Assembly: GCA_020725925.1 (NCBI GenBank)
Contig: DYTN01000003.1
Coordinates: 18,591 to 82,590 of the forward strand
DNA length: 64,000 bases
Origin: Methanobacteriota archaeon
GTDB taxonomy: Archaea; Thermoplasmatota; Thermoplasmata; UBA10834
Direction: 5' to 3'
Part shown: positions 1,991 through 48,571 of the stretch, in pieces
How positions within the stretch are numbered: the stretch's first letter is position 1
How the letters are laid out: each line of letters begins with the position of its first letter
Notes under the pieces: model-generated
The model's input: the letters and a program-made list of their open reading frames with translations, nothing else
What the model was told of the DNA's origin: nothing
Databases searched by the model: none
Position numbers and translations under genes: made by a program

Positions 1991-2748
1991 ACCCGAGGAA
2001 GATCGAGAAGATACTGAGGCGGCTCAGCAAGGGCGATTGCACGGTCGCAGAGGCACTGGAGCTGCTGAGGACCCTGCCCTACGACGACCTCGAGTTCGCC
2101 AAGCTCGACCAGCACAGGGAGCTCAGGAAGGGCATCCCCGAGGCCGTCTACACGCCTGGAAAGACCACGAACCAGATCCTCGGCATCGCATCGCGCACAC
2201 TCGAGAGAGGCGACGAGGCGGTCTTCACGAGGATGAGCAAGGACCTGTTCGACAGGCTGAGAAACAAGTTCGGGGCCAAAGTGAGATGGTATCCCGAGGC
2301 GCGGATCGCAACCGTCGGACTTGCCAAGAGGCCGAACATCGGCAGGGTGCTGGTCGTCACCGCGGGCACATCGGACATACCGGTCGCCGAGGAGGCCGCG
2401 GTGACGGCTGAGCTCCTGGGGTGCAGGGTCGACCGCCTGTACGATGTGGGTGTTGCGGGCATCCACAGACTGACGGCGAACATCAGGCAGTTCGACGCGG
2501 CAGATGTCATCATCGTGCTCGCGGGCATGGAGGGCGCGCTCCCCAGCGTCGTCGCAGGCATGACCAGCAAGCCGGTGATAGCCGTCCCCACGAGCGTCGG
2601 ATACGGCGCGAGCTTCGACGGCATCGCCGCCCTCCTTGGCATGCTCTCGAGCTGCTCGAGCGGGATCGGGGTGGTCAACATAGACAACGGGTTCGGGGCA
2701 GGGGCGCTCGCAACCGTGATCGTGAAGAGCACTCGCCGGCGCGCCTAG
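1987..2748 (+). CDS. larB: LarB, pyridinium-3,5-biscarboxylic acid mononucleotide synthase (PurE-like)
   Basis: C-terminal PurE-like core (VLVVTAGTSDIPVAEEAA...GVAGIHRL...IIVLAGMEGALPSVVAG...VIAVPTSVGYGASFDG) with a LarB-type N-terminal extension. Translationally coupled to larE. Confidence 0.82.
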   Translation: MNPRKIEKILRRLSKGDCTVAEALELLRTLPYDDLEFAKLDQHRELRKGIPEAVYTPGKTTNQILGIASRTLERGDEAVFTRMSKDLFDRLRNKFGAKVRWYPEARIATVGLAKRPNIGRVLVVTAGTSDIPVAEEAAVTAELLGCRVDRLYDVGVAGIHRLTANIRQFDAADVIIVLAGMEGALPSVVAGMTSKPVIAVPTSVGYGASFDGIAALLGMLSSCSSGIGVVNIDNGFGAGALATVIVKSTRRRA

Positions 2749-3647
2749 TCCATCTTGTTCCCGCACTTCCTGCAGAAGACATCGCTGGGCTTTGCCTTGG
2801 TGCCACAGTTGCTGCAGACCTTCTCGAGCTGGACCTTCCCGCCGCACTTCCCGCAGAAGACATCGCCGGCCTCCAGGGGCGTTCCGCAGACTTTGCATGC
2901 GCGCTCAGGCGCGTGCATGTCGAACACCTGTGGCTCTGTCGGCTTCTCCTCCGCCAGCTCCTCCTCCGCCTTGAGGGGAATCGTCTCGCTCGCAGCCTCC
3001 GCGCTGATTGCCTTTCTCGCCTTCACCGCGAGCGAGAGGGCCTTCGAATAGGAACCTGCGACGAAAGCGCTCTCAGCGTCGGTCATGAGACCCTGCGCGG
3101 TGTCGACCGCCAAGCCTCGCTCGACAGCCTTCTTGATGTCCGCTTTGGCCGTGCTGATCTCGAACTTCGCGCTCAGGTAGTTGCTGTCCTGGTCCACGGG
3201 CAGCTTGGTGCCCTTGTAGGAGTCAGGCATCGCGACGGTCTGCTTGGCCGCAAGGAGACGCTCGGCGAACTCCTCGATGTCCTCCTTCTCCCTCTCCACT
3301 TTGGGCTTCGGCTGAGCGGCCTCTGCCTTCTGGGGCGGGCTGGTGAGCTCGTCCCTTGCCTGCTCGCACAGGTCCATGCACTTGTCGAAGTCACCCCTGT
3401 CCATCGCCCTCTTGGCCGACGACACCAGGGCCTGCGCGCTGCTGACATCAGCGCCCTTGCGCTGCATCACGTTCATGACGGAGCGAGTGGTAAGCATGGC
3501 GTTGTACGCCTCGTCCCTCTTCTGTGCCGCTCGCCTGACCTCCTTTGTCTTCCCCCTCATGTACCTGAGCTCGAAGAACACCACGAAGGCCATCGCCGCC
3601 GCGAGGACCGCCACGAGAATCAGCTTGTCCGTATCCGAGAGGGCCAA
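2745..3647 (-). CDS. Membrane-anchored coiled-coil protein with two tandem C-terminal zinc ribbons (hypothetical)
   Basis: N-terminal TM helix (LILVAVLAAAMAFVVFF), a charged/alpha-helical middle region, and two repeats of CxxC-x9-12-CxxC (CKVCG...CGKCGG and CSNCG...CRKCGN). The DNA shows a direct duplication of roughly 50 bp encoding the ribbons (2760-2880). Confidence 0.55.
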   Translation of the reverse strand: MALSDTDKLILVAVLAAAMAFVVFFELRYMRGKTKEVRRAAQKRDEAYNAMLTTRSVMNVMQRKGADVSSAQALVSSAKRAMDRGDFDKCMDLCEQARDELTSPPQKAEAAQPKPKVEREKEDIEEFAERLLAAKQTVAMPDSYKGTKLPVDQDSNYLSAKFEISTAKADIKKAVERGLAVDTAQGLMTDAESAFVAGSYSKALSLAVKARKAISAEAASETIPLKAEEELAEEKPTEPQVFDMHAPERACKVCGTPLEAGDVFCGKCGGKVQLEKVCSNCGTKAKPSDVFCRKCGNKMD

Positions 3648-4900: not shown

Positions 4901-5617
4901 ATGTCAGGCGAGGACCTGTTCGGCCAGGCGTTCATGGATTTCCATAAGGGCAGAAGGTTCAAACTCAGGCTGGAGAGGGACGACGGCTACGTCGACGAGC
5001 AGGACCTGAGCCTGTACTTCAAGGACTTCGACGAGTTCCCAGACGTCGAGAGGAAGGCACTGAGGCACGCGAGGGGGAGAGTGCTGGACATCGGCGTCGG
5101 GGCGGGCAGGGTGGCGTTGCACCTCCAGAGGCAGGGGATGAGGGTCCTGGGGATCGATATCTCCGACAAGGCGCTCGAAGTCAGCAGACGAAGAGGGGTG
5201 CGCGAACTCGCCAAGATGTCAGCGTGCGACCTCAGGCTCCGGAGGGACAGCTTCGACACTGCGCTGGCGTTCTGCAACAACTTCGGTCTGTGCGGAAACA
5301 TGGATGGCGTCAGGGAGATGATGGAAAGGCTGCACAGGATCATCAGGGATGACGGCGTGTTCCTGGCGGAGTCGATCCACCCGACAAGGACTGACAACCC
5401 GAGGCATCTCAGCTATCACAGGCTCAATATCGAACGGGGCCGGCCACCGGGCCAGGCCACGCTGAGGGAGCTCTACCGAGGGAAGCGAGGCGAATGGTGG
5501 GATCTGCTGATGGTCACGCCCCTGGAGATGCGGCGGCTATGCACGAGCACCGGCTGGAGCATCGATAGGACCTACAGAGGCACCCCGGCGTACGTGTACG
5601 TCCTCAGGAAAGACTAG
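4901..5617 (+). CDS. Class I SAM-dependent methyltransferase
   Basis: VLDIGVGAGRVALHL (motif I, GxGxG) and downstream acidic motif II/III spacing. Substrate is unknown. Confidence 0.7.
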   Translation: MSGEDLFGQAFMDFHKGRRFKLRLERDDGYVDEQDLSLYFKDFDEFPDVERKALRHARGRVLDIGVGAGRVALHLQRQGMRVLGIDISDKALEVSRRRGVRELAKMSACDLRLRRDSFDTALAFCNNFGLCGNMDGVREMMERLHRIIRDDGVFLAESIHPTRTDNPRHLSYHRLNIERGRPPGQATLRELYRGKRGEWWDLLMVTPLEMRRLCTSTGWSIDRTYRGTPAYVYVLRKD

Positions 5618-6387
5618 AGCAGCGCTATCAGGAGAGCGAGCAAGGTCGCGAGACCGATGGACAGGAAGTTGTTCCCGAGCTTGCCTATCCTGCCCGCACG
5701 CTCCCAGGTCGCGCCGATGACGCTGTCTACCTGACACCCCAGGAAGCCGCATAGCATCGGCACGAAGAGCGTGGCCGGGCCTGCAAGCAACGACTCGTCG
5801 AAGAACGCAAAGACCACGTACGCTATTGCCGACGTGTAGGCGGCCGCGATGAACGCCGCAAGCTGGCCCGTGAGCGAGACGCCTCCGTCGACACCGCGCT
5901 TCACGCGCTCGAAGGTGGTGACCATATAGACCCTCGGGTCCACTATGCCTATCTCGCTCGCTGCCGTGTCCGCGGCGGCGACGGCTATGGCCGAAACGAA
6001 CAAGTAGCTCGCGATGTCCTTCGCGAACATGCCGTCTGCCGGAGCCGTCCACTCCGCCACGAAGCTCGCGAAAGCAATCAGAGTCGGGATGGCGCCGTTG
6101 GCCGCCACATTCCTCCAAGTGCGCTCGCCCTTGGCCCCCTCCTGGAACCCCTCGGACCTCTTCCACTCGAACCTGTATTTGGTGGCGCCAAAGCTCGTCA
6201 CGAGGAACACTAGGAGCAGCACGAGCCAGAGCACATTCCCGCAGATTCCAATGACCATGCCAACGACGAAGGCGCAGGAGGCACCTGACCAGTCGAATAT
6301 CCTCCGGGAGTAGGACGCGATGGCCATGGCGAGACAGAACACGGTCACGCCTACGATGGTGAGCGGGTCGGGGAGCGGCAACACCAA
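5614..6387 (-). CDS. DUF92/TMEM19-family integral membrane protein
   Basis: Multi-TM protein with TKYRFEWKRSEG...GERTWRNVAANG, which matches the conserved DUF92 block. Confidence 0.65.
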   Translation of the reverse strand: MVLPLPDPLTIVGVTVFCLAMAIASYSRRIFDWSGASCAFVVGMVIGICGNVLWLVLLLVFLVTSFGATKYRFEWKRSEGFQEGAKGERTWRNVAANGAIPTLIAFASFVAEWTAPADGMFAKDIASYLFVSAIAVAAADTAASEIGIVDPRVYMVTTFERVKRGVDGGVSLTGQLAAFIAAAYTSAIAYVVFAFFDESLLAGPATLFVPMLCGFLGCQVDSVIGATWERAGRIGKLGNNFLSIGLATLLALLIALL

Positions 6388-6395
6388 TGGACCAC

Positions 6396-9300
6396 CTAGG
6401 TCTTGTTCCTCAACCGGCGGGGGAAGACGGGAGCCTTCGAGTAGACTCCCTTCACGATGTCGTTGACCCCACGGACCTTGTCGAGGTCGCCGTCCCAGTC
6501 CTTGAGCACTTGACCGAACTGTTTCTCAATCGCACTCACGGCCTTCTGCATCTTGAGCGCGACCTTTCTGGATGCCTGCCCATGGAGTATGACCGCCAGG
6601 AAGAGATGCTCCCCCTTCTCGACTAGGACGCTCTTCGGGCCGAACTCGATCTTCCTCAAGGTGAACGACGTGATGTCCTTGAACGAGTCCTTCACGAAGT
6701 CCTGGATTGCCACAAACATGCTGCCGAGAACCTGGTCGTCCATTCCCGGCTTCAACCTCCTAGTGCTGTGCGAGATCAACCTTCCATCGTTGTATATCAC
6801 GAACGTCTCGTCCACAGCTATCCTGCCCTCTCGCACGAAATAACCTGAGACGCCGAGGAACGCGAGTACGGCGATAGTCAGGAGATAAGGCCAGGCGACG
6901 GTCAGGAAGTGCAACTCCACCGCCGATGTGTACAGCGGAGTCTGGACGGAATTGCCAGCAAGATCCGAGACGAAGGCGTAGAAAGAGATGTTGCCCTCCC
7001 TGACCGGGAGGTCCAGTACGCGGTAGAAGGTCCCACCGTCGTATCTGCCAACGGTGAAGGCCGAGAACGCAGTCTCACCCTGGAATCTGACGTAGAGCAC
7101 GATGCCACTCGCCTCGACGTTCTGGTCATGGACTCTGACTGTGATGTTCACTCTGCTCCCGCCGAAAAGAGAGGGCTGCGAGGTGTACACGAAGGCACTG
7201 GGAGCGACATCGTCAATCGTTATGCGGGTCTCAAGCCTAGACACGGTCCCCGCTTGATCGCCTGCCACCACGAGTACTGAATGCGGCCCCTCGATCCACC
7301 CACTGGTGTTGAGCTGGTACATGTCGCCGAAATGCATGGGGCCGCCGCCGTCAATATGGTAGACGACGTCTAGCAGAGCTGCCGAGTAGGGAGTGATGAG
7401 GAACACTATGGGGGTTCCGCTGCGAATGACATAGTCCGGCCAGGGACTGAGAATCTGGATGGCGGGAGGTCTGTTCCCGATGATTGCGCTCAGGAGAAAC
7501 GAGTACCCATCATCATCGGTCACGGTGATGTTGAGATGATAGTCACTTCCGAGGGCGTAGGAATGCTTCACTGGAGCTTGCAGGTCATTGATGACTGTTA
7601 GCATCGCACCATCGCCGAAATCATAGACCACTCGCACGACATCCGGGTACCGGACAAGAAGGGGCCCCAGGCCAAAGGTCACATTGCTCGTGTTTGAGAA
7701 GTCTCTTGGGGACTCCACGAGTCCGAAGAATTCTCCCCGAAATGGCTTGTGCCTGATCTCGATAGAGACCTGTTGTGTCGTGACAGAACCGTCGGAGTCG
7801 GTAACCCTGACCTTTGCTGTGTAGTTACCCACTTGAGTGTACGAACAAGTGGACGTGTTGGCGGTCGTTATTGCGTCGGCCTCGAACTCCGCTCCTGGGG
7901 CAACGAAATCCCATTCGTACATCACGGCGGGATCCAAACCCGTTACATCAGCGACGAAGACAACGTCATAGAATTCCTCGTAGTATCCATCCCAACTCTC
8001 CACCGGGACCGTGCTGAGGTCTACGAATGGAGGTATCTCCGTCACATGAAAGCCCAATGTGTAGGAACTCGTGTTGCCATCGAACTCCCTCACGATGAGG
8101 GTCACGCTGTAGTCTCCGTCCTGAAGGTTGGCGAAGCTCATCGCGGCCATCTCAGTGTCGGTAACGTAGAAAGACGAAGAATGGCCATCTGGATATGTCA
8201 GCGTCCAGTTCCAATCCACTATGCCGTCGAACGAATCTGTCGTGCTGATGAACCTGAAAGGCACCCCCTCTTGAGGGTCCGTTGCGTTGAGGACAAGCCC
8301 TGCTATCGGACCAACATCGAAGATGGCCAAGTCCCAAGTCGCGATCGCCGACATCCCGTCGATGTCGGTCACTCTTGAGGCAATCCTGTAGTACTCAGGA
8401 TAGGACTCCGCGCTGAAGACATGGGTAGTAGTATTGCTGTTCGGAGCATATGGATCAGGCACGAAGATCCCAGGAACATATGAATAGTCCCACTCATAGC
8501 TGACTATCGTGTCGACGGGCACACCGTGCCATTCATCGACAAATGCAACGAACGTCACGGGCGATCCCTCGAGTGCGCTTGGAGGGGCATCTATCCTAAC
8601 GTCTGGGGCCTGAGACTGCACGTAGATGAAGTATGTCTTGTTCCCGATGGATCCATCGGTGTCAGTGACCTCCAATGTCACCTCATGGGTTCCGTCCTGG
8701 AACTCGAGTGTCAGGTTGGATTCATCTCCGGTGTAGACTCCGTCGACAATCCACCTTCTGGAGGATACCGGATCGTAGGAGGAGGTCGTGTCCAAGAAGC
8801 TGACCAGCTGTCCTTCGCTCGGATTCTCTGGAGTCCATGAGAAACTGACAAGCGGAACGCTGTCAAGTACAGTGACGTTTGCCTGGTCGAAAGCGGGTTC
8901 GCCTCCCGGGTCAACCGCAATCACGGATATTGTGTAGTTGCGCACGTCCGCGTACGTGTGTGTCGGGGTCACATCCTTGATCCAGCCGCTCACATTGCCA
9001 TCGCCGAAATCCCAGAAGTACTCCATATAGGGAATCTCGGAAGTGCCGGTCTTCACAGTCCCGTTAATCTGGAGCTCGGAACCCTGCCTGGTGACGTAGG
9101 GGCCGCCTGCATCGACCTCGGGTGGCCTATTGATCTGCTCCCATGCCGACACGGACCGCGACCCAGCCTCCAGCACAAGCAGGTCGCCCCTGTTGTCGTG
9201 AGTAGCATCGCCTATTCTAGCGTACACTGGCTCTGCGCCTGTGACAAACGCTGCGGACGGCGTCGCGGGCAGGCCCACCCCAGCTTGGCGATAGAGGAAC

Positions 9301-11426
9301 AGAAGGTCCGCTGAGCCGAATATCGCTATGACATCCGCGTGGCCATCATCGGTCACGTCCTGGACTGAGACGTACTTTGGCACCTCTGGAAGGTCAAGTG
9401 TGCCGAAAGGATGAGGAGCCACAACGAAGTCGTCCTGGTCGAACAGGTACATCGAGCCGTCATACGGCCTCATGGCCACTATGTCCGCCTTGTCATCGCC
9501 CGTGATGTCGCCGCACCAGAGGCTGGTGAAGTCAGAACCCACCGTGTGCGACAGAGTGTAGCCCGGTGAGGAGGCGTCGAATGGCACCCCAGGCTGCTGC
9601 AGAAGCACGACTACCTTTCTAATCGAGCGAGTGTAGGCGATGTCGTTGAGGCCGTCAGAGTTGAAGTCCCCGACCGTGACGGCCCAAATCCCGGCGCCTG
9701 GGGTGAGCGCCACCTCGTAGGAATCGCCAAAGGCGTCAGGGCCCCCGTTGTTGAAGAAGATGTCTAGCTGGCCGTCGCCAGTGGCCGCCAGGATGTCGAG
9801 GAGCTCGTCATCGTTCAGGTCGTCGATTGCGATTGATGTGATCATGTTCCCGCACGTCAGGTTGATTTCGGAGTCAGGGAATGAGATGCCCCCGAAGAGG
9901 ATTCGGATCAATGAGCCGTCCTGCATCGTCACGAGGACATCGCGGTATTCGTCACCGTTGAGGTCAGACACGAGCATTCGGGAGGGGGTGAAGTCGAGAT
10001 CGACCGTCCGCGGGATTCCGCCGAATGAGATGAAGTAATCTACTGTGCGCGCAGCCCTGTTCAGGACCACGAGATCCTGAACGTCGTCTCCATCGATATC
10101 GCCTGCGGCGATCTCCGACGGAACGGCAGACCGGTTGATCCACGAAGTCGCGTTGCTGTTTGAGAAGTAGGGGCTGCGATTTGGATAGAGTCCAATGCTG
10201 GAACCCGCCCAGGCCATGCCGGCGCTCGCGACGACGATGTCTGGCAGAAGGTCTCCGTCAGCGTCGCCAATGGCTGCTGCGCTTGGCAGAGTGCCTGTGG
10301 GGAATCTGAAGTCGGGAACCATGGGCCAGAGCGGGATCGAACTCCCTTGGATCAGGCCCGCAGTGAGGTTGCCGTACTTCGACAGCAAGAGGAGATCATC
10401 CTCCGCACTGCCACTCATGTTTGCAGCGAGTACGAATGAGGGCTCGAAATCGAGCGTCCTATTGTAGTCCTCGACGGACGGAAGCGCTCCGAGGGACTGG
10501 AAGAAGAACCTGACTGCGGGGTCGGTCTGCGTTATCACGGCAAGGTCGTCAAGGGCGTCCCCGTCAAGCCTTCCTGAGGCAAGTCCGGACGGATTACCTG
10601 AAACGGTGAGAACCTGCGATGGCGCGCCACCCAACTCATATGGGCGGTCGAAGATCATGACCGTCGATGAGTAGTAATTGGCGACTGCTAGCTCTTCAGA
10701 GCCATCATCATTGAAGTCGCCCGACACGACAGCTTCTGTTCCCAGACCGCAAGAGGAAGCGTTGTTTGTGGCGAAGCTGGGACCAAAGAAAACCTCCAAT
10801 CTGCCAGGGCTCGACGTAGGATTCGCCCCAGCAGACGCAACTGCGATGTCCGGGTATTTGTCTCCAGAGAGATTGCCGACAATGAACGAGCGGGCATTCG
10901 CATTCGTTGAGTGATCAGGCCATATTTCATAGCTGCTCTCCGACGTGAGGTTGTACACCGTGAACCGTGGAGTCGAGAACACTGGCTCACGCTCCAGCGA
11001 CACGATCTGATGCCCTCCGGACGCGAACACGTCTATGGGAGCGATGCTCATCGGATTGTTCTGGGTCGTGATGTTGAACGATGGATAGGTCGGGAGCTTC
11101 CCGTCCAGGCCTCTGTAGAATATGGAGATGGTCTTGAGGGCATACGAGGAGACCATGAGGTCCGACTGGCCGTCTCCGTTCAGATCTGATATCTCCACAT
11201 CACTGGAGCCACCGCCTACCATGAGGGCCCTGGACACCAGTGGGTACTCGGTCACGTTGACGGAAGTGTCCATGGGGTCGGGGAACAGGATCGCATCCAC
11301 CGACGGCGGAATCTCACTTGCCTCAGCAAGCCGTTGATCGTCGGATGGAGGCACGAGAACGGGGACTGCTAGTGCGAACAGGACGAATGCGCACAGTATC
11401 TTTGCGGTCAACATATGACGAACCAA
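6396..11426 (-). CDS. Giant (1676 aa) type-I surface receptor: signal peptide, FG-GAP/VCBS beta-propeller repeats, PKD-type Ig domains, one TM helix and a cytoplasmic Roadblock/LC7-like domain
   Basis: N-terminal signal h-region ILCAFVLFALAVPVLV. At least 9 repeats with DxDGDG/DxNxDGxxD calcium-loop-like motifs. Several PKD modules (WDFGDG, YEWDFV...). TM helix WPYLLTIAVLAFLGVSGYFV followed by REGR. About 170-aa C-terminal tail with a Roadblock-like hydrophobic pattern. Dozens of NxS/T sequons lie only in the ectodomain. Confidence 0.85.
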   Translation of the reverse strand: MVRHMLTAKILCAFVLFALAVPVLVPPSDDQRLAEASEIPPSVDAILFPDPMDTSVNVTEYPLVSRALMVGGGSSDVEISDLNGDGQSDLMVSSYALKTISIFYRGLDGKLPTYPSFNITTQNNPMSIAPIDVFASGGHQIVSLEREPVFSTPRFTVYNLTSESSYEIWPDHSTNANARSFIVGNLSGDKYPDIAVASAGANPTSSPGRLEVFFGPSFATNNASSCGLGTEAVVSGDFNDDGSEELAVANYYSSTVMIFDRPYELGGAPSQVLTVSGNPSGLASGRLDGDALDDLAVITQTDPAVRFFFQSLGALPSVEDYNRTLDFEPSFVLAANMSGSAEDDLLLLSKYGNLTAGLIQGSSIPLWPMVPDFRFPTGTLPSAAAIGDADGDLLPDIVVASAGMAWAGSSIGLYPNRSPYFSNSNATSWINRSAVPSEIAAGDIDGDDVQDLVVLNRAARTVDYFISFGGIPRTVDLDFTPSRMLVSDLNGDEYRDVLVTMQDGSLIRILFGGISFPDSEINLTCGNMITSIAIDDLNDDELLDILAATGDGQLDIFFNNGGPDAFGDSYEVALTPGAGIWAVTVGDFNSDGLNDIAYTRSIRKVVVLLQQPGVPFDASSPGYTLSHTVGSDFTSLWCGDITGDDKADIVAMRPYDGSMYLFDQDDFVVAPHPFGTLDLPEVPKYVSVQDVTDDGHADVIAIFGSADLLFLYRQAGVGLPATPSAAFVTGAEPVYARIGDATHDNRGDLLVLEAGSRSVSAWEQINRPPEVDAGGPYVTRQGSELQINGTVKTGTSEIPYMEYFWDFGDGNVSGWIKDVTPTHTYADVRNYTISVIAVDPGGEPAFDQANVTVLDSVPLVSFSWTPENPSEGQLVSFLDTTSSYDPVSSRRWIVDGVYTGDESNLTLEFQDGTHEVTLEVTDTDGSIGNKTYFIYVQSQAPDVRIDAPPSALEGSPVTFVAFVDEWHGVPVDTIVSYEWDYSYVPGIFVPDPYAPNSNTTTHVFSAESYPEYYRIASRVTDIDGMSAIATWDLAIFDVGPIAGLVLNATDPQEGVPFRFISTTDSFDGIVDWNWTLTYPDGHSSSFYVTDTEMAAMSFANLQDGDYSVTLIVREFDGNTSSYTLGFHVTEIPPFVDLSTVPVESWDGYYEEFYDVVFVADVTGLDPAVMYEWDFVAPGAEFEADAITTANTSTCSYTQVGNYTAKVRVTDSDGSVTTQQVSIEIRHKPFRGEFFGLVESPRDFSNTSNVTFGLGPLLVRYPDVVRVVYDFGDGAMLTVINDLQAPVKHSYALGSDYHLNITVTDDDGYSFLLSAIIGNRPPAIQILSPWPDYVIRSGTPIVFLITPYSAALLDVVYHIDGGGPMHFGDMYQLNTSGWIEGPHSVLVVAGDQAGTVSRLETRITIDDVAPSAFVYTSQPSLFGGSRVNITVRVHDQNVEASGIVLYVRFQGETAFSAFTVGRYDGGTFYRVLDLPVREGNISFYAFVSDLAGNSVQTPLYTSAVELHFLTVAWPYLLTIAVLAFLGVSGYFVREGRIAVDETFVIYNDGRLISHSTRRLKPGMDDQVLGSMFVAIQDFVKDSFKDITSFTLRKIEFGPKSVLVEKGEHLFLAVILHGQASRKVALKMQKAVSAIEKQFGQVLKDWDGDLDKVRGVNDIVKGVYSKAPVFPRRLRNKT

Positions 11427-11549: not shown

Positions 11550-11864
11550 GTGATGAGTGCCTCGATGAAGGTCGGGAGGATACTGGGCATACCGATCCAG
11601 CTCCACATCACCTTCCTTCTGATACTTCCCCTGTTCGCATATTTCTTCTCTGCTCCTCCAGAATCGGGCGAGGTGTTCGGGATCCAGCTCAGCTTCAAGG
11701 AGCTGGACGCCGAGCTTTGGGTCAAGTACGCCTTCGGGACCGTCGCGGCGGTGCTCTTCTTCGTAACGGTGCTGATACACGAGCTCGCGCACTCGTACCT
11801 GGCTCTCAGGTACGGCGTGAGGATCAAGGGGATCACCCTGATGGTCTTCGGGGGCGTCTCCTAG
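11550..11864 (+). CDS. Site-2 protease (peptidase M50) N-terminal part with the HExxH motif, ending at an in-frame TAG
   Basis: TM helices plus HELAHS (the zinc-binding HExxH of S2P/M50). It ends ...LMVFGGVS then TAG. The next ATG follows immediately in the same frame. Confidence 0.8.
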   Translation: MMSASMKVGRILGIPIQLHITFLLILPLFAYFFSAPPESGEVFGIQLSFKELDAELWVKYAFGTVAAVLFFVTVLIHELAHSYLALRYGVRIKGITLMVFGGVS

Positions 11865-12731
11865 ATGGAGGAGATACCCCGGCAGCCAGGCCAGGAGTGG
11901 CGCATGGCGTTCGCAGGCCCTCTGTCCAGCCTGCTGGTGGGAGCTGCATCCTACCTTCTGATGGTGGTGCTGAAGCTGGTGGAGAGCGGCTCCGTCATAA
12001 TCGAGGGCATGGTGATCCTGCTCGGCCTGATGGCCCTGTACAACATGCTCCTCGCGGCGTTCAACCTCATACCGGCCTTCCCGATGGACGGCGGCCGGGT
12101 GCTGAGGGCCTTCTTCGCCACCAGGATGCCCTACCTCGAGGCGACCAAGAAGGCCGCCAGGATAGGCAGATACTTCGCGATCGGCATGGCGGTCTTCGGC
12201 ATCTTCTACAACTTCTGGTTCATCCTGATCGCGCTGTTCGTCTACATAGGTGCATCCGAGGAGGAGCAGGCGACCACGATCTCGGAGAGCCTGCAGGGCG
12301 TGACCGTCAGGCAGCTGATGTCTAGCTCGGTCCAGGTGGTACACCCTGACATGACAGTGCAGCAGCTCCACGACCTCATGCTATCGACGAGGCACATGGG
12401 CTTCCCGGTGGTCGACAACGGCCTCGTTGGCATAGTGACGCTCTCCGACACTCACAAGGTGTCCCGGGAGCAGCTCCCGCACGCGCGCGTCAGAGACATT
12501 ATGACGCGCGATGTCGTGACCGTCCCACCGGACATGGACGCATCGAAGGCGCTCTACCTGACGTCGGAGAGGAGGATAGGGAGGCTCGTCGTGATGGAGG
12601 GCGGCCGGCTTGCGGGCATCGTGACCAAGAAGGACTTCCTGAGGGCCGTCGACGTGATGGCTGCTCGGAAGCAGGCGACCAGATGGGGCCAGCAGTTCCC
12701 GCCGACGGAGCCACCGATCGCGCCTGTCTGA
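11865..12731 (+). CDS. Site-2 protease (M50) C-terminal part (NxxPxxxxDG motif) fused to a CBS-domain pair. Same frame as 11550-11864 and separated only by a TAG.
   Basis: FNLIPAFPMDGGRVLRA (M50 LDG motif), then two CBS domains (VTVRQLM...GIVTLSD, VRDIMTRDVVTV...GIVTKKDF). It aligns to S2P homologues continuously across the TAG (FGGVA-M-x-x-IP). Confidence 0.8.
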   Translation: MEEIPRQPGQEWRMAFAGPLSSLLVGAASYLLMVVLKLVESGSVIIEGMVILLGLMALYNMLLAAFNLIPAFPMDGGRVLRAFFATRMPYLEATKKAARIGRYFAIGMAVFGIFYNFWFILIALFVYIGASEEEQATTISESLQGVTVRQLMSSSVQVVHPDMTVQQLHDLMLSTRHMGFPVVDNGLVGIVTLSDTHKVSREQLPHARVRDIMTRDVVTVPPDMDASKALYLTSERRIGRLVVMEGGRLAGIVTKKDFLRAVDVMAARKQATRWGQQFPPTEPPIAPV

Positions 12732-23665: not shown

Positions 23666-24703
23666 CTAACCGACCTTGTACCTCAGGATGGCCGCGATGC
23701 CCCCCAGCGATTCCAGCCTTCTGCCGGCTTCGTGCAAGGAGCTGACTATCATGAACTCGCCCTTGGTGTTCTCGACGTTCCTCAGGAGCTCATCGGCCGC
23801 GGATGACCTGACCTTGGTGTCCAGGACCAGTAAGGTTTCGACGGCGCCTGCCCGGACAGCAGAGGCCACCTGCGCGTCTCCGTAGACGAACAGGCCGCCC
23901 TTGGAGATCTCGGAGAAGAGCCGCTCCATGAGCCTGGTCTCCTTGGCGACCCTGAGGTCCTCGAGCAGCTTGCCACCGATCCCCTGCTTCATCAGCTCGT
24001 GTATGCCAGCCATGCCCGCCTGGCCGGTGTGCTGCACCGATATTGAGCCGGCGATTCCCGGCTGCTTCTCGCGCAGCCTCCTTGCCAGGGCTTCCTTGAC
24101 GAAGCCCGGGCCGAGGATGATCAGCGGTTCACCATGGAGAGTGATTCTGAGCTTCTCCACGACCTCGTCCAAATAATCCTCTTCGTTCGACTTCGACTCG
24201 TACATCTTCCCGCCGGGGTTCCGCGTGATCGTCGCGTGTTCCTTGATGCCGTATTCGCGCGCGGCTGCGATGACGGCGTCTGTGTCCTCGATCGCGACGA
24301 AGTACACGGAAGGCCTCTCGGAGGATGCCACCGCCCTCTTGACCCTGTCGAAGTGCTGTTGCTTCCACTCGGGCTTGATGATGCTCAGGGCCTCCCCGAG
24401 GGAGACCATGAGCGTGTGGTGCTCCCCTAAGTCCTGCGGGCCGGCCTCGATGACGCCGAGCACGCGCAGCACATCGTCGGATTGCTGGAACTCGACCTTC
24501 TTCACCCTGATGCCCAGGCGCATGCGGACCTTGTCCAACCTGTCCGGCCGGAGCTTGTCGCTCTTCTCCTCTCCCCTCCGGTAGGCCGTCGCGAAGACCA
24601 GGTCGCCCTCGTCTATCAGGTTGCACAGGTGCCACAAGTCATCGAGCGTTTCCGGCATGAGCTTCAGCTCGCCCGCCTTGGCATCCTGGTGGAGTATCTT
24701 CAT
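23666..24703 (-). CDS. pelA: Pelota/Dom34 mRNA-surveillance, ribosome-rescue factor
   Basis: MKILHQDAKAGELKLMPETLDDLWHLCNLIDEGD N-domain, plus central and eRF1-like C-domains. The track ORF is extended upstream by about 42 codons. Confidence 0.85.
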   Translation of the reverse strand: MKILHQDAKAGELKLMPETLDDLWHLCNLIDEGDLVFATAYRRGEEKSDKLRPDRLDKVRMRLGIRVKKVEFQQSDDVLRVLGVIEAGPQDLGEHHTLMVSLGEALSIIKPEWKQQHFDRVKRAVASSERPSVYFVAIEDTDAVIAAAREYGIKEHATITRNPGGKMYESKSNEEDYLDEVVEKLRITLHGEPLIILGPGFVKEALARRLREKQPGIAGSISVQHTGQAGMAGIHELMKQGIGGKLLEDLRVAKETRLMERLFSEISKGGLFVYGDAQVASAVRAGAVETLLVLDTKVRSSAADELLRNVENTKGEFMIVSSLHEAGRRLESLGGIAAILRYKVG

Positions 24704-24827
24704 GTGTGCATTGCACGCATCATTCTGACTGGATATCAAGCCATCGGGCTGCGACCGTCCGCCGAGAAAGTTTATATGCTCTTCCGGTAATGCTGACCCA
24801 ACTTGCCAGAGGGGGAGCTGGACTATC

Positions 24828-25187
24828 ATGGTCGAGTACTTGGCTCTTGAGGAGATTCTTGACGAGATTCGCTCGATCCCTTCAGTCTACGAGGCCACCG
24901 TGGTGTCTAGGAGCGGGATGCACATCGCGGGTGACTCGCCCAAGGGGGTGCACCTCGAGACCTTCGTCGCGATGTCGGCGATCCTCCTCGGGGCCGCGGA
25001 GACCGCCACGGCAGAGCTGAAGGACAAGCTGCAGTTCGTTTCTGTGGAGCTCGCGCGGGGAAGGATGGTCCTGGTGAGCGCGGGGAGCAGGGCTCTGCTG
25101 GTGCTCACGGCGTCGAAGGACCTGTCCATCACCGACCTGGCGGACAAGGCGAAGGAGTTCGCGGCCAAGATAGAAGGCAAGATCTAG
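24828..25187 (+). CDS. Roadblock/LC7 (MglB-like) domain protein
   Basis: 119 aa. IPSVYEATVVSRSGMHIAGD...AMSAILLGAAE...GRMVLVSAGSRALLVLTASKD is the classic Roadblock pattern. Confidence 0.75.
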   Translation: MVEYLALEEILDEIRSIPSVYEATVVSRSGMHIAGDSPKGVHLETFVAMSAILLGAAETATAELKDKLQFVSVELARGRMVLVSAGSRALLVLTASKDLSITDLADKAKEFAAKIEGKI

Positions 25188-36219: not shown

Positions 36220-39200
36220 CTACCTGCGCCTGGTCCTCATCCTGACGAGCAGCACGAGCACCACTGCCCCGACTATCGGGATCAGGACGGTCGGGAACTC
36301 CGGAATGATGCCCGAGATGGTTATCTGCACCTCGTCCGTGTTCCAGTTGCCAGCCGCATCCGTCACGTTGAGGGTGATGTTGTACACACCCTCGGTCCAG
36401 AAGACGAAGCTGACCTCCTCGCCCCAGAGGGTATATGGCGTGCCCTCGTAGTCGAAGGTCCAGGTCCAGTTCACGATGCCGACATCGTCCCAAGAGCCGG
36501 AGGCGTTGAGCACGACGAGCTCCCCGCCCATCCTGACCTGATCGTCGCCCGCATTGGCCGTCGGAGGCGTCACATCGATCACGGTGACGACCATAGTGTC
36601 GGGCGCGGACAGCTGCCCGGCAGTGTCCTCAACCACTAGCTCGACGTTGTACACGCCCGGCACCGTGAAGGTGAACTGGGGCGAGACGTCGTACAACTCC
36701 TGGCTCAGCTCGAGGATGGTCCAGGTGTAGTTCACTATCCCGACATCATCGGTGGAGCCGGAGCCGTCGAACGTCACCAAGGTCTCGTCGTCGACATCCT
36801 GGTCCGGACCAGCGTCCGCGACAGGGAGCTGGTCAGCCGCGACATCCACCCAAGTGCTGTCCGAATTCATCAGGTTAGCTCCATCCCAGACAGTCAGCGT
36901 GATCGTATGGTTGCCTGTGGTCGTGAAGGCGTAGTCCACCGACTCGCCAAAGAGCAACACAAGTCCGCCGTCATCGAAGGTCCACTGGTAGGTCACTATG
37001 CCCACGTTGTCGCTGGACATGCTGCCGTCGAGCGTGACTGTCACGCCCTCGATCGCGTCCTGCCCGGGACCGGCGTCTGCGACAGGCGGGTCGTTGTCGA
37101 CCGTGAAGAGCTCGAACTGTATCGCTCCCCTGCCTCCCCAGTCGCCGATGAAGTACAGGGTGGCATAGCCGCCGCTCGGGGCGGACGGCGCGGAGACGAA
37201 CTCCGTGTCCACCACGCTCCATGCGCCGATCGGGTAGATCCCCAGCCAGTTCCAGTTCGCGGTGCCGCTCTCAACCCTCAACAGCGCCACATATGGGATC
37301 ACGACCCCCGTCGGGTCGGACGGGTAGGCCGTCTCCAGGCTGCCGTTGTCGAAGGTGAAGAACGCGAACGCGTGCGTGGCCCCGTCGAACCATGCAGTGC
37401 CCTCCTCGGGACCCGCCATGGTGGAGTTCACATACTCCCCCCGGAAGGCCCAGTACAGGTCAGGCCCCCACCAGATCTCGTAGAGCTGCAGGTATACCTG
37501 ATCGGTCGTGTTGGACAGCCAGCCGGCCCGAGGCTGGGCGGACCACCAATAGCTCACGACGTAGCTGTCCCCGATGATTGAATATGGCAGGTCGTTCTGC
37601 GACTGCTCCAGCGGATGCATGCCGACGGAGCGCGTCTCGACGCCGTAGTAGTAGTCCCATATGCCCGCGGAGCCGTTCATCATGAACTGCCAAAGGGAGA
37701 TCTGCTGGGCGTCGAACTCCTGGGCGGAGGCGTAGATCCAGGTCGGGTTGGCCATGGACACGTTCTCCGTCGCGGACTGAGTGTATGTCAGGTTCGGGCC
37801 CCAGAGATCAGTCACAAGCACGAAGTCGAGCCTCACGTCCGTCATGCCTGACGCGTTGATGCTCGACTGACCATGCGTGTTGTCGACGGCGTGCGCGACG
37901 ACGATGAGCTCGATCGGCGGGATCCACATCTCGTAGCTCCCGTCAGCCAATGTTCTGGTGGAGTTCCTCTCCATATAGTCCGGCGAGCCCGTGCCTACCT
38001 CCACCGTCGCGTTGAATATGCCGCTGCCGGACCCGGTGTTGTTCACATAGCCCCAGAGCCTCACTGTGTCAGGGATGTCCCACGGCGTCAGGCCGAAGTC
38101 CCGCAAGTTGGCCCCCGAGGACACGGTCACGGTCGTGTGCATGTCCCTGTAGCCGGGCACACCATAGATGTCCACCGAGTACTCGCCTGAGACGAGGGAG
38201 ACGTTGTAGTCCCCGGTGGCGTTTGACTCGGTCCATTCATCATAGTCCGGGGAGTGGAAGCTCATGCTGGCGTTTGCCACAGGCGCGCTCGAGAACGCGT
38301 CGAGCACCTTCCCAGTGAGCCAAGCATCGATCGGCCGGAGCCCGAAGTCCCACCAGAGCAGGTCACCAGGATTGATGGTGACGTTCCACGTCACGTTCCT
38401 GGAATAGCCATCGGCCTCTGCGCCGAGGATCAGGTCGGTGCCGTCGAACGCGTCCAGAATGTACGCGCCCGAGGAGTTGCTGATGGCCATGTTCATCGTA
38501 CCGTTCATGTCGAACAGGAAGACCCATGCGTTCGGGAGCGGGTCGCCTGTGCTGAGGTCCGTCACATTTCCCCTGACGGTGGCGGTCGTCGGCGCGAGGG
38601 ACGCATCGAGGACTTCGTCCTCACCTGGGAGCACCTCGAGCCCCTCCATCACGAACATTGAGTACCCAACGAGAGACATCACGACTCTGGCATAGCTCCC
38701 GTTCGTGACGTTCATGAAGTAGTACCCTGTGGCATCTGTCCACGTGCGGTTGCTGTAGCCCTGCTCTGTGGTCTCATTCCATGTCTCGTACATGACGAGG
38801 ACGTTCTCGATGGGCAGGCCTGTGCCCCGCTCCGTGACAGTGCCGGAGAGCGTGGCATCGTCCGCGTAGATCTGCGGCTCCAGCGTGATGTTGAACCAGT
38901 AGGTCATGCCAGAGACGAGCGGGTCATTGGTTCCGTTGTCGATGAACGGGTATCCGGGGAAGTCCAGTGCGGCGATGCCCCCACCTGCGATGGACGGGAT
39001 CACATTGACGGAGTAGTATCCCGCGCCGTCCGGCTTCGTCATGTTGACGTAGAGCGGGGCGCCCTCGCCCATCGTGGCGGGGTCGTTGGAAAATCCTCCG
39101 ATGTTCCCGTTGGACACGGGAGCGCCGAACTCGTCGGTCACATAGCCCTTGAGAGTGACATCAGCTACTGTCGGCGCGATGTTGTCCAAGGTGAAGTTGA

Positions 39201-39546
39201 GCCACACGGTCTGACCGGAGAGCACTCGGACCATGCCGCTCCCGGCGTAGCAGCTGTTGTTGAACGCCATGAGCATGTAGTCGAGCCCGCCCGTGACGTT
39301 CAGGGTGTAGTTGCCCTCGGCGTCGGTGGAGGTGGTGGATTCCATGCCTCCACCGCCCATCCACGCCATCGCGAGGATGTAGGAGTTCGGGAGGGGGTTC
39401 GTCCCGTCACTTACCCACCCCTTGATCGTTCCCTCCGGCGGGGCCGCTGAGGCGTCTCCGGGGACGAGCACAGCCAAGCCGGTTATCATCGACAAGCACA
39501 CGAGCCACGCGGCAAGCACCTTCATGAGATGCCATGTCTTGGTCAA
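36220..39546 (-). CDS. Large (1108 aa) secreted surface glycoprotein: signal peptide, 6x carboxypeptidase-regulatory-like (transthyretin-fold) repeats, an unknown central domain, 3x PKD domains and a PEF-CTERM-type archaeosortase sorting signal
   Basis: Signal peptide (LAAWLVCLSMITGLAVLVPGDASA). Repeats of hGxVxDxxtGxPhxNAxV. PKD modules (DAGPGQD...YQWTFDDGG; x3). C-terminal IPEFPTVLIPIVGAVVLVLLVRMRTRRR (PEF then TM then basic tail). Many NxS/T sequons. Confidence 0.8.
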   Translation of the reverse strand: MTKTWHLMKVLAAWLVCLSMITGLAVLVPGDASAAPPEGTIKGWVSDGTNPLPNSYILAMAWMGGGGMESTTSTDAEGNYTLNVTGGLDYMLMAFNNSCYAGSGMVRVLSGQTVWLNFTLDNIAPTVADVTLKGYVTDEFGAPVSNGNIGGFSNDPATMGEGAPLYVNMTKPDGAGYYSVNVIPSIAGGGIAALDFPGYPFIDNGTNDPLVSGMTYWFNITLEPQIYADDATLSGTVTERGTGLPIENVLVMYETWNETTEQGYSNRTWTDATGYYFMNVTNGSYARVVMSLVGYSMFVMEGLEVLPGEDEVLDASLAPTTATVRGNVTDLSTGDPLPNAWVFLFDMNGTMNMAISNSSGAYILDAFDGTDLILGAEADGYSRNVTWNVTINPGDLLWWDFGLRPIDAWLTGKVLDAFSSAPVANASMSFHSPDYDEWTESNATGDYNVSLVSGEYSVDIYGVPGYRDMHTTVTVSSGANLRDFGLTPWDIPDTVRLWGYVNNTGSGSGIFNATVEVGTGSPDYMERNSTRTLADGSYEMWIPPIELIVVAHAVDNTHGQSSINASGMTDVRLDFVLVTDLWGPNLTYTQSATENVSMANPTWIYASAQEFDAQQISLWQFMMNGSAGIWDYYYGVETRSVGMHPLEQSQNDLPYSIIGDSYVVSYWWSAQPRAGWLSNTTDQVYLQLYEIWWGPDLYWAFRGEYVNSTMAGPEEGTAWFDGATHAFAFFTFDNGSLETAYPSDPTGVVIPYVALLRVESGTANWNWLGIYPIGAWSVVDTEFVSAPSAPSGGYATLYFIGDWGGRGAIQFELFTVDNDPPVADAGPGQDAIEGVTVTLDGSMSSDNVGIVTYQWTFDDGGLVLLFGESVDYAFTTTGNHTITLTVWDGANLMNSDSTWVDVAADQLPVADAGPDQDVDDETLVTFDGSGSTDDVGIVNYTWTILELSQELYDVSPQFTFTVPGVYNVELVVEDTAGQLSAPDTMVVTVIDVTPPTANAGDDQVRMGGELVVLNASGSWDDVGIVNWTWTFDYEGTPYTLWGEEVSFVFWTEGVYNITLNVTDAAGNWNTDEVQITISGIIPEFPTVLIPIVGAVVLVLLVRMRTRRR

Positions 39547-48257: not shown

Positions 48258-48571
48258 CGCCGCGAGCGCCCCGAGCCTCTCGCTGACCACGCGAGCTCGT
48301 TTCTCCGGATCGTCCGGAAGGGGTGCCCTCGCACCGATTGGGGGAATGACCAGGGCTCCACCCGAGGCTTCCTTGACTGTCGCACGATCACCTGGTACGG
48401 GATTTCGGCCGCTGCTTTTGAGATTGGCTTTTCGGATATTTAATATGCGAGAGGCGGTGCTCAGCCAGCATCGCGAGGGGTTGGTTTCTGGACCCTGCCC
48501 ACCCAATCTGCGCCCAGTTCTGCGCAATTCTTAATAAGGGTGCGGCCCTTCATTCGCTGAAGAGAGCAGGG

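Follow-up and report, generated by a model that had tools for sequence, protein, structure and literature searches.

A giant surface glycoprotein of an uncultured Thermoplasmata archaeon with an intracellular longin-type domain, and a possible link between surface receptors and small GTPases beyond eukaryotes and Asgard archaea

Many longin domains of eukaryotes and Asgard archaea act as platforms or regulators for small GTPases, and SRX and SRβ form a membrane-tethered longin–GTPase pair. We know of no eukaryotic surface receptor that ends on its inner side in a longin domain. Longins are still counted among the eukaryotic signature proteins, for which Asgard archaea gave the first examples from outside eukaryotes (PMC4917890; PMC13037920), and they are usually traced back to Roadblock domains of prokaryotes (PMC3521125). 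In bacteria, the neighbourhoods of Group 1 Rup small GTPases encode a membrane component in which a conserved domain whose function is not known is combined with a transmembrane (TM) helix and an OmpA domain (PMC4316618); we found no experimental characterisation of this system in the searchable literature. Here we describe a giant surface glycoprotein, encoded in a 64-kb stretch of DNA (the window) from an uncultured Thermoplasmata archaeon, whose intracellular end is an unnamed longin-type domain. In bacteria and other Thermoplasmata, relatives of this domain are encoded beside Ras-like GTPases, which suggests that surface receptors may be coupled to GTPases in organisms other than eukaryotes and Asgard archaea. 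The initial annotation held this architecture to be uncharacterised in archaea, which appears right, although a 2015 study had already remarked on the bacterial counterpart of the domain, as a domain without known identity (Wuichet & Sogaard-Andersen, PMC4316618).

A giant single-pass surface protein

The giant protein is read from a TTG start codon (codon 5 is an ATG in the same frame), and its closest relatives come from metagenome-assembled genomes (MAGs) of uncultured Thermoplasmata. The open reading frame, Pfam matches and hydropathy bear out the giant receptor-like, single-pass architecture first proposed for it, including the PKD Ig-like modules after the repeats and the single TM helix followed by REGR (Table 1). 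Just two segments of the protein are convincingly hydrophobic, one at each end of the predicted ectodomain. The N-terminus of an orthologue (L002) likewise carries a basic and hydrophobic leader, and nearly all orthologues have a hydrophobic segment immediately upstream of the C-terminal module. The cytoplasmic part, put at roughly 170 residues in the initial annotation, comprises 145 (1532–1676).

Table 1. Features of the giant gene and its neighbours (coordinates in the window)
Feature	Residues	Coordinates	Strand	Basis
Giant gene (stop codon at 6396-6398), encoding a type I surface protein of 1676 aa with a single membrane pass		6396..11426	(-)	Open reading frame
Putative signal peptide region (MVRHMLTAK and hydrophobic core ILCAFVLFALAVPVLV)	1-30	11337..11426	(-)	Hydropathy window 1.74
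14 FG-GAP repeats with DxDxDG-type loops	~60-775	9102..11249	(-)	Pfam FG-GAP_3 (E=7e-37, 8 stretches), FG-GAP (E=1.6e-16); motif spacing
PKD/Ig-like stalk	~776-1505	6912..9101	(-)	Pfam PKD_4 (E=1.9e-23, 4 stretches), PKD (E=4e-18), K319L-like_PKD, Big_13
Single TM helix (FLTVAWPYLLTIAVLAFLGVSGYFV, then REGR)	1507-1531	6834..6908	(-)	Hydropathy
Cytoplasmic longin-like module (signatures HxTRRLKPGMDD, α1 helix SMFVAIQDFVKDSF, WDGDL)	1535-1665	6432..6824	(-)	
DUF92/TIGR00297 integral membrane protein; 8 nt past the giant gene's stop		5614..6387	(-)	Pfam DUF92 (E=2e-53)
Membrane-anchored coiled-coil protein with C-terminal double zinc ribbon		2745..3647	(-)	Pfam DZR/Zn_ribbon

By motif and by a spacing of about 50 residues, the FG-GAP repeats split into a first seven (at residues ~89, 132, 193, 245, 294, 344 and 396) and a second seven (at ~451, 496, 544, 595, 648, 698 and 748), a pattern that suggests two seven-bladed β-propellers. 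At least nine calcium-loop-like repeats had been proposed; all of the quoted strings are present, but the count is 14. The final ~250 residues of the stalk match no family, and can be aligned to homologues such as P0001 and P0002. The ectodomain holds 30 N-X-S/T sequons, as against 9.1 ± 2.6 in shuffled sequences, and the tail holds one. The isoelectric point is 4.05 for the outside part and 9.8 for the inside part. The protein is probably heavily N-glycosylated.

Like integrin α chains and other FG-GAP/VCBS surface proteins, the giant protein combines FG-GAP repeats that bear calcium-loop-like DxDxDG motifs with an Ig-like stalk, one TM helix and a tail in the cytoplasm. However, integrin α has seven repeats rather than 14 in what are probably two propellers, thigh and calf domains rather than a PKD stalk, and a short-peptide tail rather than a folded domain of 130 residues. 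No integrin-specific Pfam family matched the giant protein, and a motif search found neither GFFKR nor GFFxR. The original description as integrin-like holds as a resemblance in design, but not for the domain complement or the repeat count.

The cytoplasmic module and its fold

An AlphaFold2 model of the tail, of moderate confidence (pLDDT 78, from a 42-sequence alignment), has the order E-E-H-E-E-E-H-h-h, that is, the ββαβββα(α) connectivity of longins, with its two opening strands starting five residues past the TM helix. The same order recurs in each of the two modules modelled for a tandem relative; the high r.m.s.d. of the Foldseek comparison for this tandem model makes it uninformative about module-to-module orientation. 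True longins share this order and were the best structural matches of the tail model: Sec22b, Ykt6, VAMP7, TRAPPC1/2/4, the sigma and zeta subunits of AP and COPI complexes, the Mon1/Ccz1/Fuzzy tri-longin GEFs and the SRX domain of SRα. The resemblance is one of modelled fold: the tail has no significant sequence similarity to eukaryotic or Asgard longins, and among curated longin Pfam models only Fuz_longin_1 gave a match, which was seen in 4 of 25 family members and fell below threshold (16.4–16.8 bits, where the cut-off is 26.1). A profile of the tail family found nothing significant among PDB sequences. Unlike those longins, the module family, judging by the matches whose names were examined, is found in Thermoplasmatota and Bacteria, and not in Asgard archaea. 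Its likeness to longins may reflect shared descent or a convergent permutation of a Roadblock ancestor.

The tail had been described as Roadblock/LC7-like, a label that we replace. At E≤1, Robl_LC7 (PF03259) matched neither the complete protein nor the tail by itself nor any of 25 family members, whereas the free Roadblock protein encoded in the same window scores 1.5e-11. An hhalign comparison of the tail family with that Roadblock protein returned a probability of 0.1%; a single-sequence target makes this a weak test, and we therefore relied on structure. The tail model does resemble solved Roadblock/MglB structures in fold, but it is without the N-terminal helix of the Roadblock αββαβββ connectivity, and its alignments to longins are longer (115–127 residues, with higher Z, against 84–101 for Roadblock structures). 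Roadblock/LC7/MglB domains, which are GAP/GEF platforms for MglA-type GTPases, are also free proteins, whereas the module here is membrane-tethered and part of a receptor. Because longin and Roadblock are sister folds, both of which serve as small-GTPase platforms, the idea of a GTPase regulator survives the change of label.

The α1 helix is the most strongly conserved part of the module, and in longin and Roadblock dimers this helix lies on the face offered to GTPases. A search with the module returned 5,705 matches. The family comprises thousands of clusters, and neither Pfam nor NCBIfam has a model for it. Other carriers include soluble giant proteins with two or three copies and 4-TM proteins with tandem modules. 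Further fusions join the module to TIR, AAA_16, DUF835 and soluble propeller proteins, so that its role may be that of an adaptor of general use and not one specific to GTPases.

Small GTPases in relatives and at the giant locus

The archaeal module and the bacterial Rup1-operon domain are homologous over their full length (hhalign probability 99.7%, E 5e-26, 124 aligned columns), and the archaeal profile retrieves bacterial 'OmpA family' proteins at E values from 1.8e-20 to 1e-7. In bacteria, the homologous domain lies in an operon with a Ras-like GTPase at 46 of 47 loci, in a layout that combines a module–TM–OmpA protein with the GTPase and a kinase/GGDEF output. Both the Rup component and the giant protein place a cytoplasmic domain beside a single TM helix, with an outer part that engages the envelope or exterior. 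However, the order is reversed: the Rup component runs from an inside N-terminal module through the TM helix to an outside OmpA domain, and the giant protein from ectodomain through TM helix to module. The Rup outer part is a peptidoglycan-binding OmpA domain, whereas that of the giant protein is a 1500-aa FG-GAP/PKD glycoprotein with no OmpA match. Group 1 Rup loci also carry adjacent rup GTPase, coiled-coil and kinase/GGDEF genes, whereas genes for a rup GTPase, a coiled-coil protein or a kinase are absent directly beside the giant gene.

In some Thermoplasmata, the gene for a Rab-like GTPase is preceded by one for a smaller paralogue. This archaeal pairing is not obligate, because at a variable ProRS–ELP3 locus one lineage (L170) has module genes without a GTPase and another (L180–184) shows the reverse, the GTPase but no module gene.

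Orthologues with the architecture of the giant protein were found at 80 species loci, with one match each. The genome scan used a narrow alignment and the exact patterns RLKPGMDD and FV[KR]DSFKD, and therefore sampled Thermoplasmata and Methanomassiliicoccales only. The DUF92 gene lies immediately downstream on the same strand at 77 of the 80 loci, and the coiled-coil/zinc-ribbon gene downstream on the same strand at 56; protein look-ups found each of them at three orthologous loci as well. This synteny suggests that the coiled-coil/zinc-ribbon gene is linked to the giant gene. For DUF92/COG1836, the literature search yielded nothing beyond papers on unrelated DUF92x families.

Scans for P-loop and NKxD motifs, together with phmmer and jackhmmer searches using H-Ras, Arf1, MglA and a Thermoplasmata GTPase as queries, found no small GTPase in the window and none within ~6 kb of the giant orthologue in the 80 species (~1 Mb searched). 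The free Roadblock gene reported at 24828–25187 is real (Robl_LC7 E=1.5e-11). Its candidacy as a partner is unsupported: it is ~13 kb distant, has Pelota and PHP genes as neighbours and shows no conserved link, and a Roadblock gene occurs near the giant gene only at seven of the Methanomassiliicoccales-labelled loci. Separately, TAG closes 31 of the 73 long open frames in the window, so pyrrolysine read-through of the TAG in a neighbouring M50 gene is unlikely.

Proposed role, alternatives and meaning

The explanation that we favour overall, and to which we give an even chance, is a surface receptor whose longin-type tail serves as a small-GTPase platform. Two FG-GAP propellers on a PKD/Ig stalk would stand outside the cell, joined by one membrane crossing to the longin-type α/β domain five residues past the membrane. 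This domain is the part under constraint and the functional end, whereas the ectodomain evolves fast. By homology with the Group 1 Rup system and the Thermoplasmata paralogues, the tail would most likely form a membrane-apposed, probably dimeric platform that recruits or regulates, perhaps by direct binding, a small GTPase of Ras/Rab-like type whose gene lies at another place in the source organism's genome. Conditions at the cell surface (ligand, matrix or contact with neighbour cells) would in this way be coupled, from the outside inwards, to a cytoplasmic switch. The GTPase role put forward in the initial annotation gains support from the Ras-like GTPase genes beside homologous domains in bacteria and some Thermoplasmata, but no GTPase is linked to the giant gene itself.

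A very large, acidic and sequon-rich ectodomain would also suit a structural part of the envelope, an S-layer-like building block or anchor whose longin-like tail only oligomerises or ties the envelope to a cytoplasmic scaffold through pairing with other carriers of the module, with no GTPase involved. Such a role fits the one match each in 80 species of two lineage groups, the constant gene neighbourhood, the lack of a GTPase near the giant gene at any of the 80 loci and the bacterial relatives, which are also envelope anchors, through OmpA. The soluble multi-copy and 4-TM tandem-module proteins could pair with the tail module to module, and longin and Roadblock domains typically act as dimers (PMC10933270). 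Against it stand the almost constant co-encoding of the homologous bacterial domain with a Ras-like GTPase and signalling output, the GTPase pairing of archaeal paralogues and the peak of conservation on the GTPase-facing α1 helix, and we hold a purely structural role to be possible but doubtful. A tail acting as a PAS/GAF/profilin-like sensor of small molecules or peptides, or as a sorting or quality-control tag for very large secreted proteins, in either case with no NTPase switch, seems to us improbable. That the tail belongs to the Roadblock/LC7/MglB family and works as a GAP, as MglB does, is, for all the similarity in fold, very hard to reconcile with the profile searches, the missing N-terminal helix and the better longin alignments.

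A domain of longin connectivity emerges as a large prokaryotic family, present in transmembrane proteins and, in bacteria and Thermoplasmata, linked in the genome to genes for Ras/Rab-like GTPases. Thousands of proteins listed as 'hypothetical' or 'PKD repeat', or misnamed 'OmpA-OmpF porin', could be re-annotated. Confirmation of the receptor–platform reading would give a structural identity to the uncharacterised Group 1 Rup systems and a candidate partner to the orphan Rab-like GTPases of Thermoplasmatota. It would also provide a tractable prokaryotic model of surface receptor–small GTPase coupling through a longin platform; the matches of the genome scan include MAGs labelled Methanomassiliicoccus, a genus with cultured members. 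More tentatively, the tail family may be a very large unnamed family of longin topology, spanning Bacteria and Thermoplasmatota, whose members serve Ras/Rab-like GTPases as platforms tethered to the membrane. Signalling from receptor through longin to small GTPase, and indeed the longin fold, might then predate, or be independent of, the Asgard–eukaryote lineage, and the giant protein might be a true outside-in receptor driving a Rab-like switch in a non-Asgard archaeon.

Architecture and conservation of the giant surface protein

The giant protein contains only two convincing hydrophobic segments, an N-terminal leader and residues 1507–1531, the latter followed by REGR. The ectodomain has far more N-X-S/T sequons than shuffled sequences do (30 against 9.1 ± 2.6), whereas the inside has a single one, and an acidic ectodomain (pI 4.05) is joined to a basic tail of 145 residues (pI 9.8). 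Pfam matches in the ectodomain comprised FG-GAP_3 (E 7e-37, eight stretches), FG-GAP (1.6e-16), PKD_4 (1.9e-23, four stretches), PKD (4e-18) and weaker Ig-like families, to which NCBIfam added nothing; every motif string cited in the initial annotation was found in the protein. A repeat signature, x-G-D-x-[DN]-x-D-x3-D-[LIV]-[LIVA]-V, occurs at about 14 positions spaced by about 50 residues, and because these positions split into two groups of seven, the ectodomain would form two seven-bladed propellers, not one. Although that annotation had described an integrin-like receptor, the protein is no strict integrin homologue: it has 14 repeats and lacks both the thigh/calf domains and the GFFKR motif.

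Scanning one genome per GTDB species yielded at least 80 orthologous loci; those listed all carry the label Thermoplasmata, Thermoplasmatota or Methanomassiliicoccales, or the broader Methanobacteriota/Euryarchaeota. In nearly all loci with enough contig, the conserved domain of the tail (hereafter the module; about 130 residues, 1535–1665) ends an open frame of 1,400–2,100 residues, with a hydrophobic segment ahead of it. The tail is closer than the ectodomain to the window protein in all 44 full-length orthologues (medians 58.5% versus 26%), so selection acts mainly on the cytoplasmic end. Orthologues in Methanomassiliicoccaceae-labelled MAGs carry 60–70 extra residues past the module, with a zinc ribbon in the sequenced examples, an extension that offers further evidence for a cytoplasmic location of the module end. 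As a surface protein the giant product is of type I; its large ectodomain evolves fast and is probably glycosylated.

Of the 80 species loci listed, 77 have the DUF92/TIGR00297 gene directly behind the giant gene and in the same orientation, as do L001–L003, three orthologous loci reached separately through protein look-ups. The DUF92 family takes in the plant VTE6 phytyl-phosphate kinase, which makes a connection through polyprenyl phosphate or glycosylation conceivable. A gene for a coiled-coil protein with a double zinc ribbon lies within a few kilobases downstream in 56 of the 80 loci listed and in L001–L003; by description, its product loosely resembles the coiled-coil protein of the bacterial Rup1 operon. 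In closer relatives the block reads ABC transporter, M50/CBS protease, giant gene, DUF92 and methyltransferase. An in-frame TAG breaks the window's M50/2xCBS gene where the intact L002 orthologue (399 aa) has Ala. Because TAG is the stop codon of 31 of the window's 73 long open frames, pyrrolysine read-through is unlikely; a pseudogene, a gene split in two or an error in sequencing would fit better.

Features in the window and in homologous loci (L-numbers)
Locus	Position	Strand	Feature
Window	2745-3647	-	Membrane-anchored coiled-coil protein, C-terminal double zinc ribbon; conserved downstream of giant gene
Window	5614-6387	-	DUF92/TIGR00297 integral membrane protein; start 8 nt past giant-gene stop codon
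Window	6396-11426	-	Giant gene; ORF of 1676 residues, TTG start, ATG four codons on
Window	11550-12731	+	Divergent M50 site-2 protease/2xCBS gene
Window	11862-11864		In-frame TAG in M50/2xCBS gene
Window	23666-24829		Pelota-like gene (eRF1 domains)
Window	24828-25187	+	Free Roadblock/LC7 protein; Robl_LC7 E 1.5e-11
Window	36220-39546	-	Second large surface-type protein, 1108 aa, 3x CarboxypepD_reg + PKD, without module
Window	45789-48527	-	912-aa GAF/histidine-kinase protein
L004	1895-7837		1,980-aa N-anchored, sequon-rich giant protein
L004	8797-12903		1,368-aa FG-GAP protein
L172	6629-7459		~272-aa Ras/Rab-like GTPase gene
L174	4001-4819		~272-aa Ras/Rab-like GTPase gene
L153			Operon gene 1: 201-aa coiled-coil protein
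L153			Operon gene 2: 607-aa module-TM-OmpA protein; only OmpA domain seen by Pfam and NCBIfam
L153			Operon gene 3: 167-aa GTPase, Ras E 2e-27, G3 motif WDLYGED without catalytic Gln
L153			Operon gene 4: 667-aa hybrid histidine kinase

Fold of the tail and range of the module family

No curated family was found for the tail in Pfam or NCBIfam; its sole Pfam signal, for the Fuzzy/Mon1/HPS1 first longin domain, fell below threshold (E 0.011; 16.4 bits, where 26.1 are required) and was seen again in 4 of 25 relatives. An AlphaFold2 model from a 42-sequence alignment (pLDDT 78, pTM 0.73) starts five residues past the TM helix and runs strand-strand-helix-strand-strand-strand-helix, with two further short helices. 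Roadblock domains have an extra N-terminal helix, whereas longins have a C-terminal helix instead (PMC10933270; PMC3521125), and the connectivity predicted for the tail is that of longin. The same topology was modelled in both modules of a tandem relative, for which the best structural matches were the tri-longin Rab GEFs Mon1, Ccz1, Fuzzy/Inturned and HPS1/4. The tail profile gave no significant match among PDB sequences, and when profiles were compared, the tail showed no similarity to the free Roadblock protein of the window. The tail thus belongs, on a model of moderate confidence, to the longin type within the longin/Roadblock superfold, and not to the Roadblock/LC7 family, to which it had initially been likened.

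A first search with the tail returned 56 homologues, all unnamed and all from Thermoplasmata or Methanomassiliicoccales metagenomes, which share the module but differ widely in what stands N-terminal to it: a large ectodomain and TM helix, a multi-pass membrane domain, a cytoplasmic zinc ribbon or nothing. Scanning 1.84 billion cluster representatives by HMMER with a trimmed module profile gave 5,705 matches at E<=1e-3, 3,823 of them at E<=1e-10. The commonest design among the best 150 (62 proteins) is that of the giant gene, with a big ectodomain, a TM helix just upstream and the module at the extreme C terminus. Ectodomains in the family are of FG-GAP/PKD, CARDB, CarboxypepD_reg/Big_7/macroglobulin-like and PQQ/WD40-like propeller types, and database names range over 'hypothetical protein', 'PKD repeat protein' and 'carboxypeptidase regulatory-like domain-containing protein'. 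Other members are soluble proteins of 1,300–2,400 aa that have two or three modules with CARDB, TPR and DUF5915 and no TM helix (P0057–P0061, P0068 and others), proteins of about 570 aa with tandem modules behind a membrane domain of 3–4 hydrophobic segments (P0062-type), and fusions to TIR, DUF835 or an AAA_16 STAND-type ATPase (P0177, P0143, P0259). These tandem, soluble and fused designs suggest a wider adaptor network. At L004, from a distant relative of low GC, a soluble zinc-ribbon and module protein is encoded between two giant surface proteins, and the association is therefore kept there without fusion.

Ras-like GTPases encoded beside module genes

The archaeal profile also matches bacterial 'OmpA family protein' sequences (Mesorhizobium, E 1.8e-20; cyanobacteria, E 1e-9), and profile–profile comparison aligned the archaeal and bacterial modules over 124 columns (99.7% probability, E 5e-26). 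Across 80 bacterial loci from a metagenome scan, the protein (about 620–670 residues) comprises a helical N terminus, the module, a TM helix and an OmpA domain. A Ras-like GTPase ORF lies downstream on the same strand in 46 of the 47 loci with enough downstream sequence, a median of 18 nt separating the end of the module ORF from the first aligned GTPase residue. The four-gene operon at L153 matches exactly the Group 1 Rup neighbourhood of Wuichet and Sogaard-Andersen (PMC4316618); no later work on it was found in the literature searched. Several tail-only archaeal fragments (P0011, P0207, P0212, P0217 and others) are auto-named 'OOP family OmpA-OmpF porin' by JGI, probably an annotation artefact carried over from the bacterial module-TM-OmpA proteins.

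GTPases also accompany archaeal modules. The module protein at L172/L173 has 203 aa, with only a short stub before its TM helix and module; 17 nt further on comes the gene for a Ras/Rab-like GTPase of 276 aa, which shows the motifs GDGGVGKT, DVLGQ and NKID and a C-terminal extension of about 100 aa. At L174–L179, a 322-aa protein with a signal peptide, a sequon-rich ectodomain of about 150 aa, a TM helix and the module (E 9e-30) precedes, by 72 nt, a 272-aa GTPase of the same family. This Thermoplasmata family ('Rab family GTPase [Thermoplasmata archaeon]' at NCBI) has more than 1,600 matches at E<=1e-10; the best 120 share at least 55% identity over near full length, except one fragment. A single Rab-like GTPase was noted in Thermoplasmatales and Aciduliprofundum in 2016 (PMC4915359). 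These genes of about 272 aa usually lie between ProRS and ELP3, and only some lineages have a module gene in the position upstream of the GTPase. Because this locus has two module genes and no GTPase in one lineage (L170), and a GTPase and no module gene in another (L180–184), the archaeal pairing is not obligate.

The free Roadblock gene reported initially is genuine. It is flanked by the Pelota-like gene and a PHP-domain gene, with no adjoining GTPase gene, and was rejected as a conserved associate of the giant gene, a Roadblock gene lying about 5 kb off in only seven Methanomassiliicoccales-labelled loci. Since no Ras/Arf/MglA-like ORF was found in the 64-kb window, or in about 1 Mb around the archaeal loci other than L172–L179, a GTPase partner for the giant-gene tail is suggested by paralogues and bacterial homologues, not observed. 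The main alternative, a less likely one in which no GTPase takes part, is that the giant protein is chiefly a structural envelope component whose tail does no more than oligomerise or dock on soluble multi-module scaffolds.

A candidate platform at the inner membrane face

The cytoplasmic longin-type domain is strongly conserved and membrane-apposed, and homologous domains are co-encoded with Ras-like GTPases. We propose that the tail would act, after the manner of longin and Roadblock domains, as a homo- or heterodimeric platform on the inner membrane face that recruits or regulates a Rab-like GTPase and so may tie cell-surface events to a cytoplasmic switch; genomic context points to this function. 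No element is better conserved between the archaeal and bacterial modules than helix alpha1 (MLxAIQDFVKDSF), and this conservation would be consistent with a partner-binding face. In its working, the giant protein would most resemble a GTPase platform of longin/Roadblock type tethered to the membrane; relatives could be demonstrated only in the unnamed domain of the OmpA proteins from Rup1 operons and in many unnamed archaeal proteins. Longins still count as signature proteins of Asgard archaea and eukaryotes (PMC4917890; PMC13037920), which makes a large family of predicted longin topology in Thermoplasmatota and Bacteria noteworthy, and its coupling to Ras-like GTPases adds weight.
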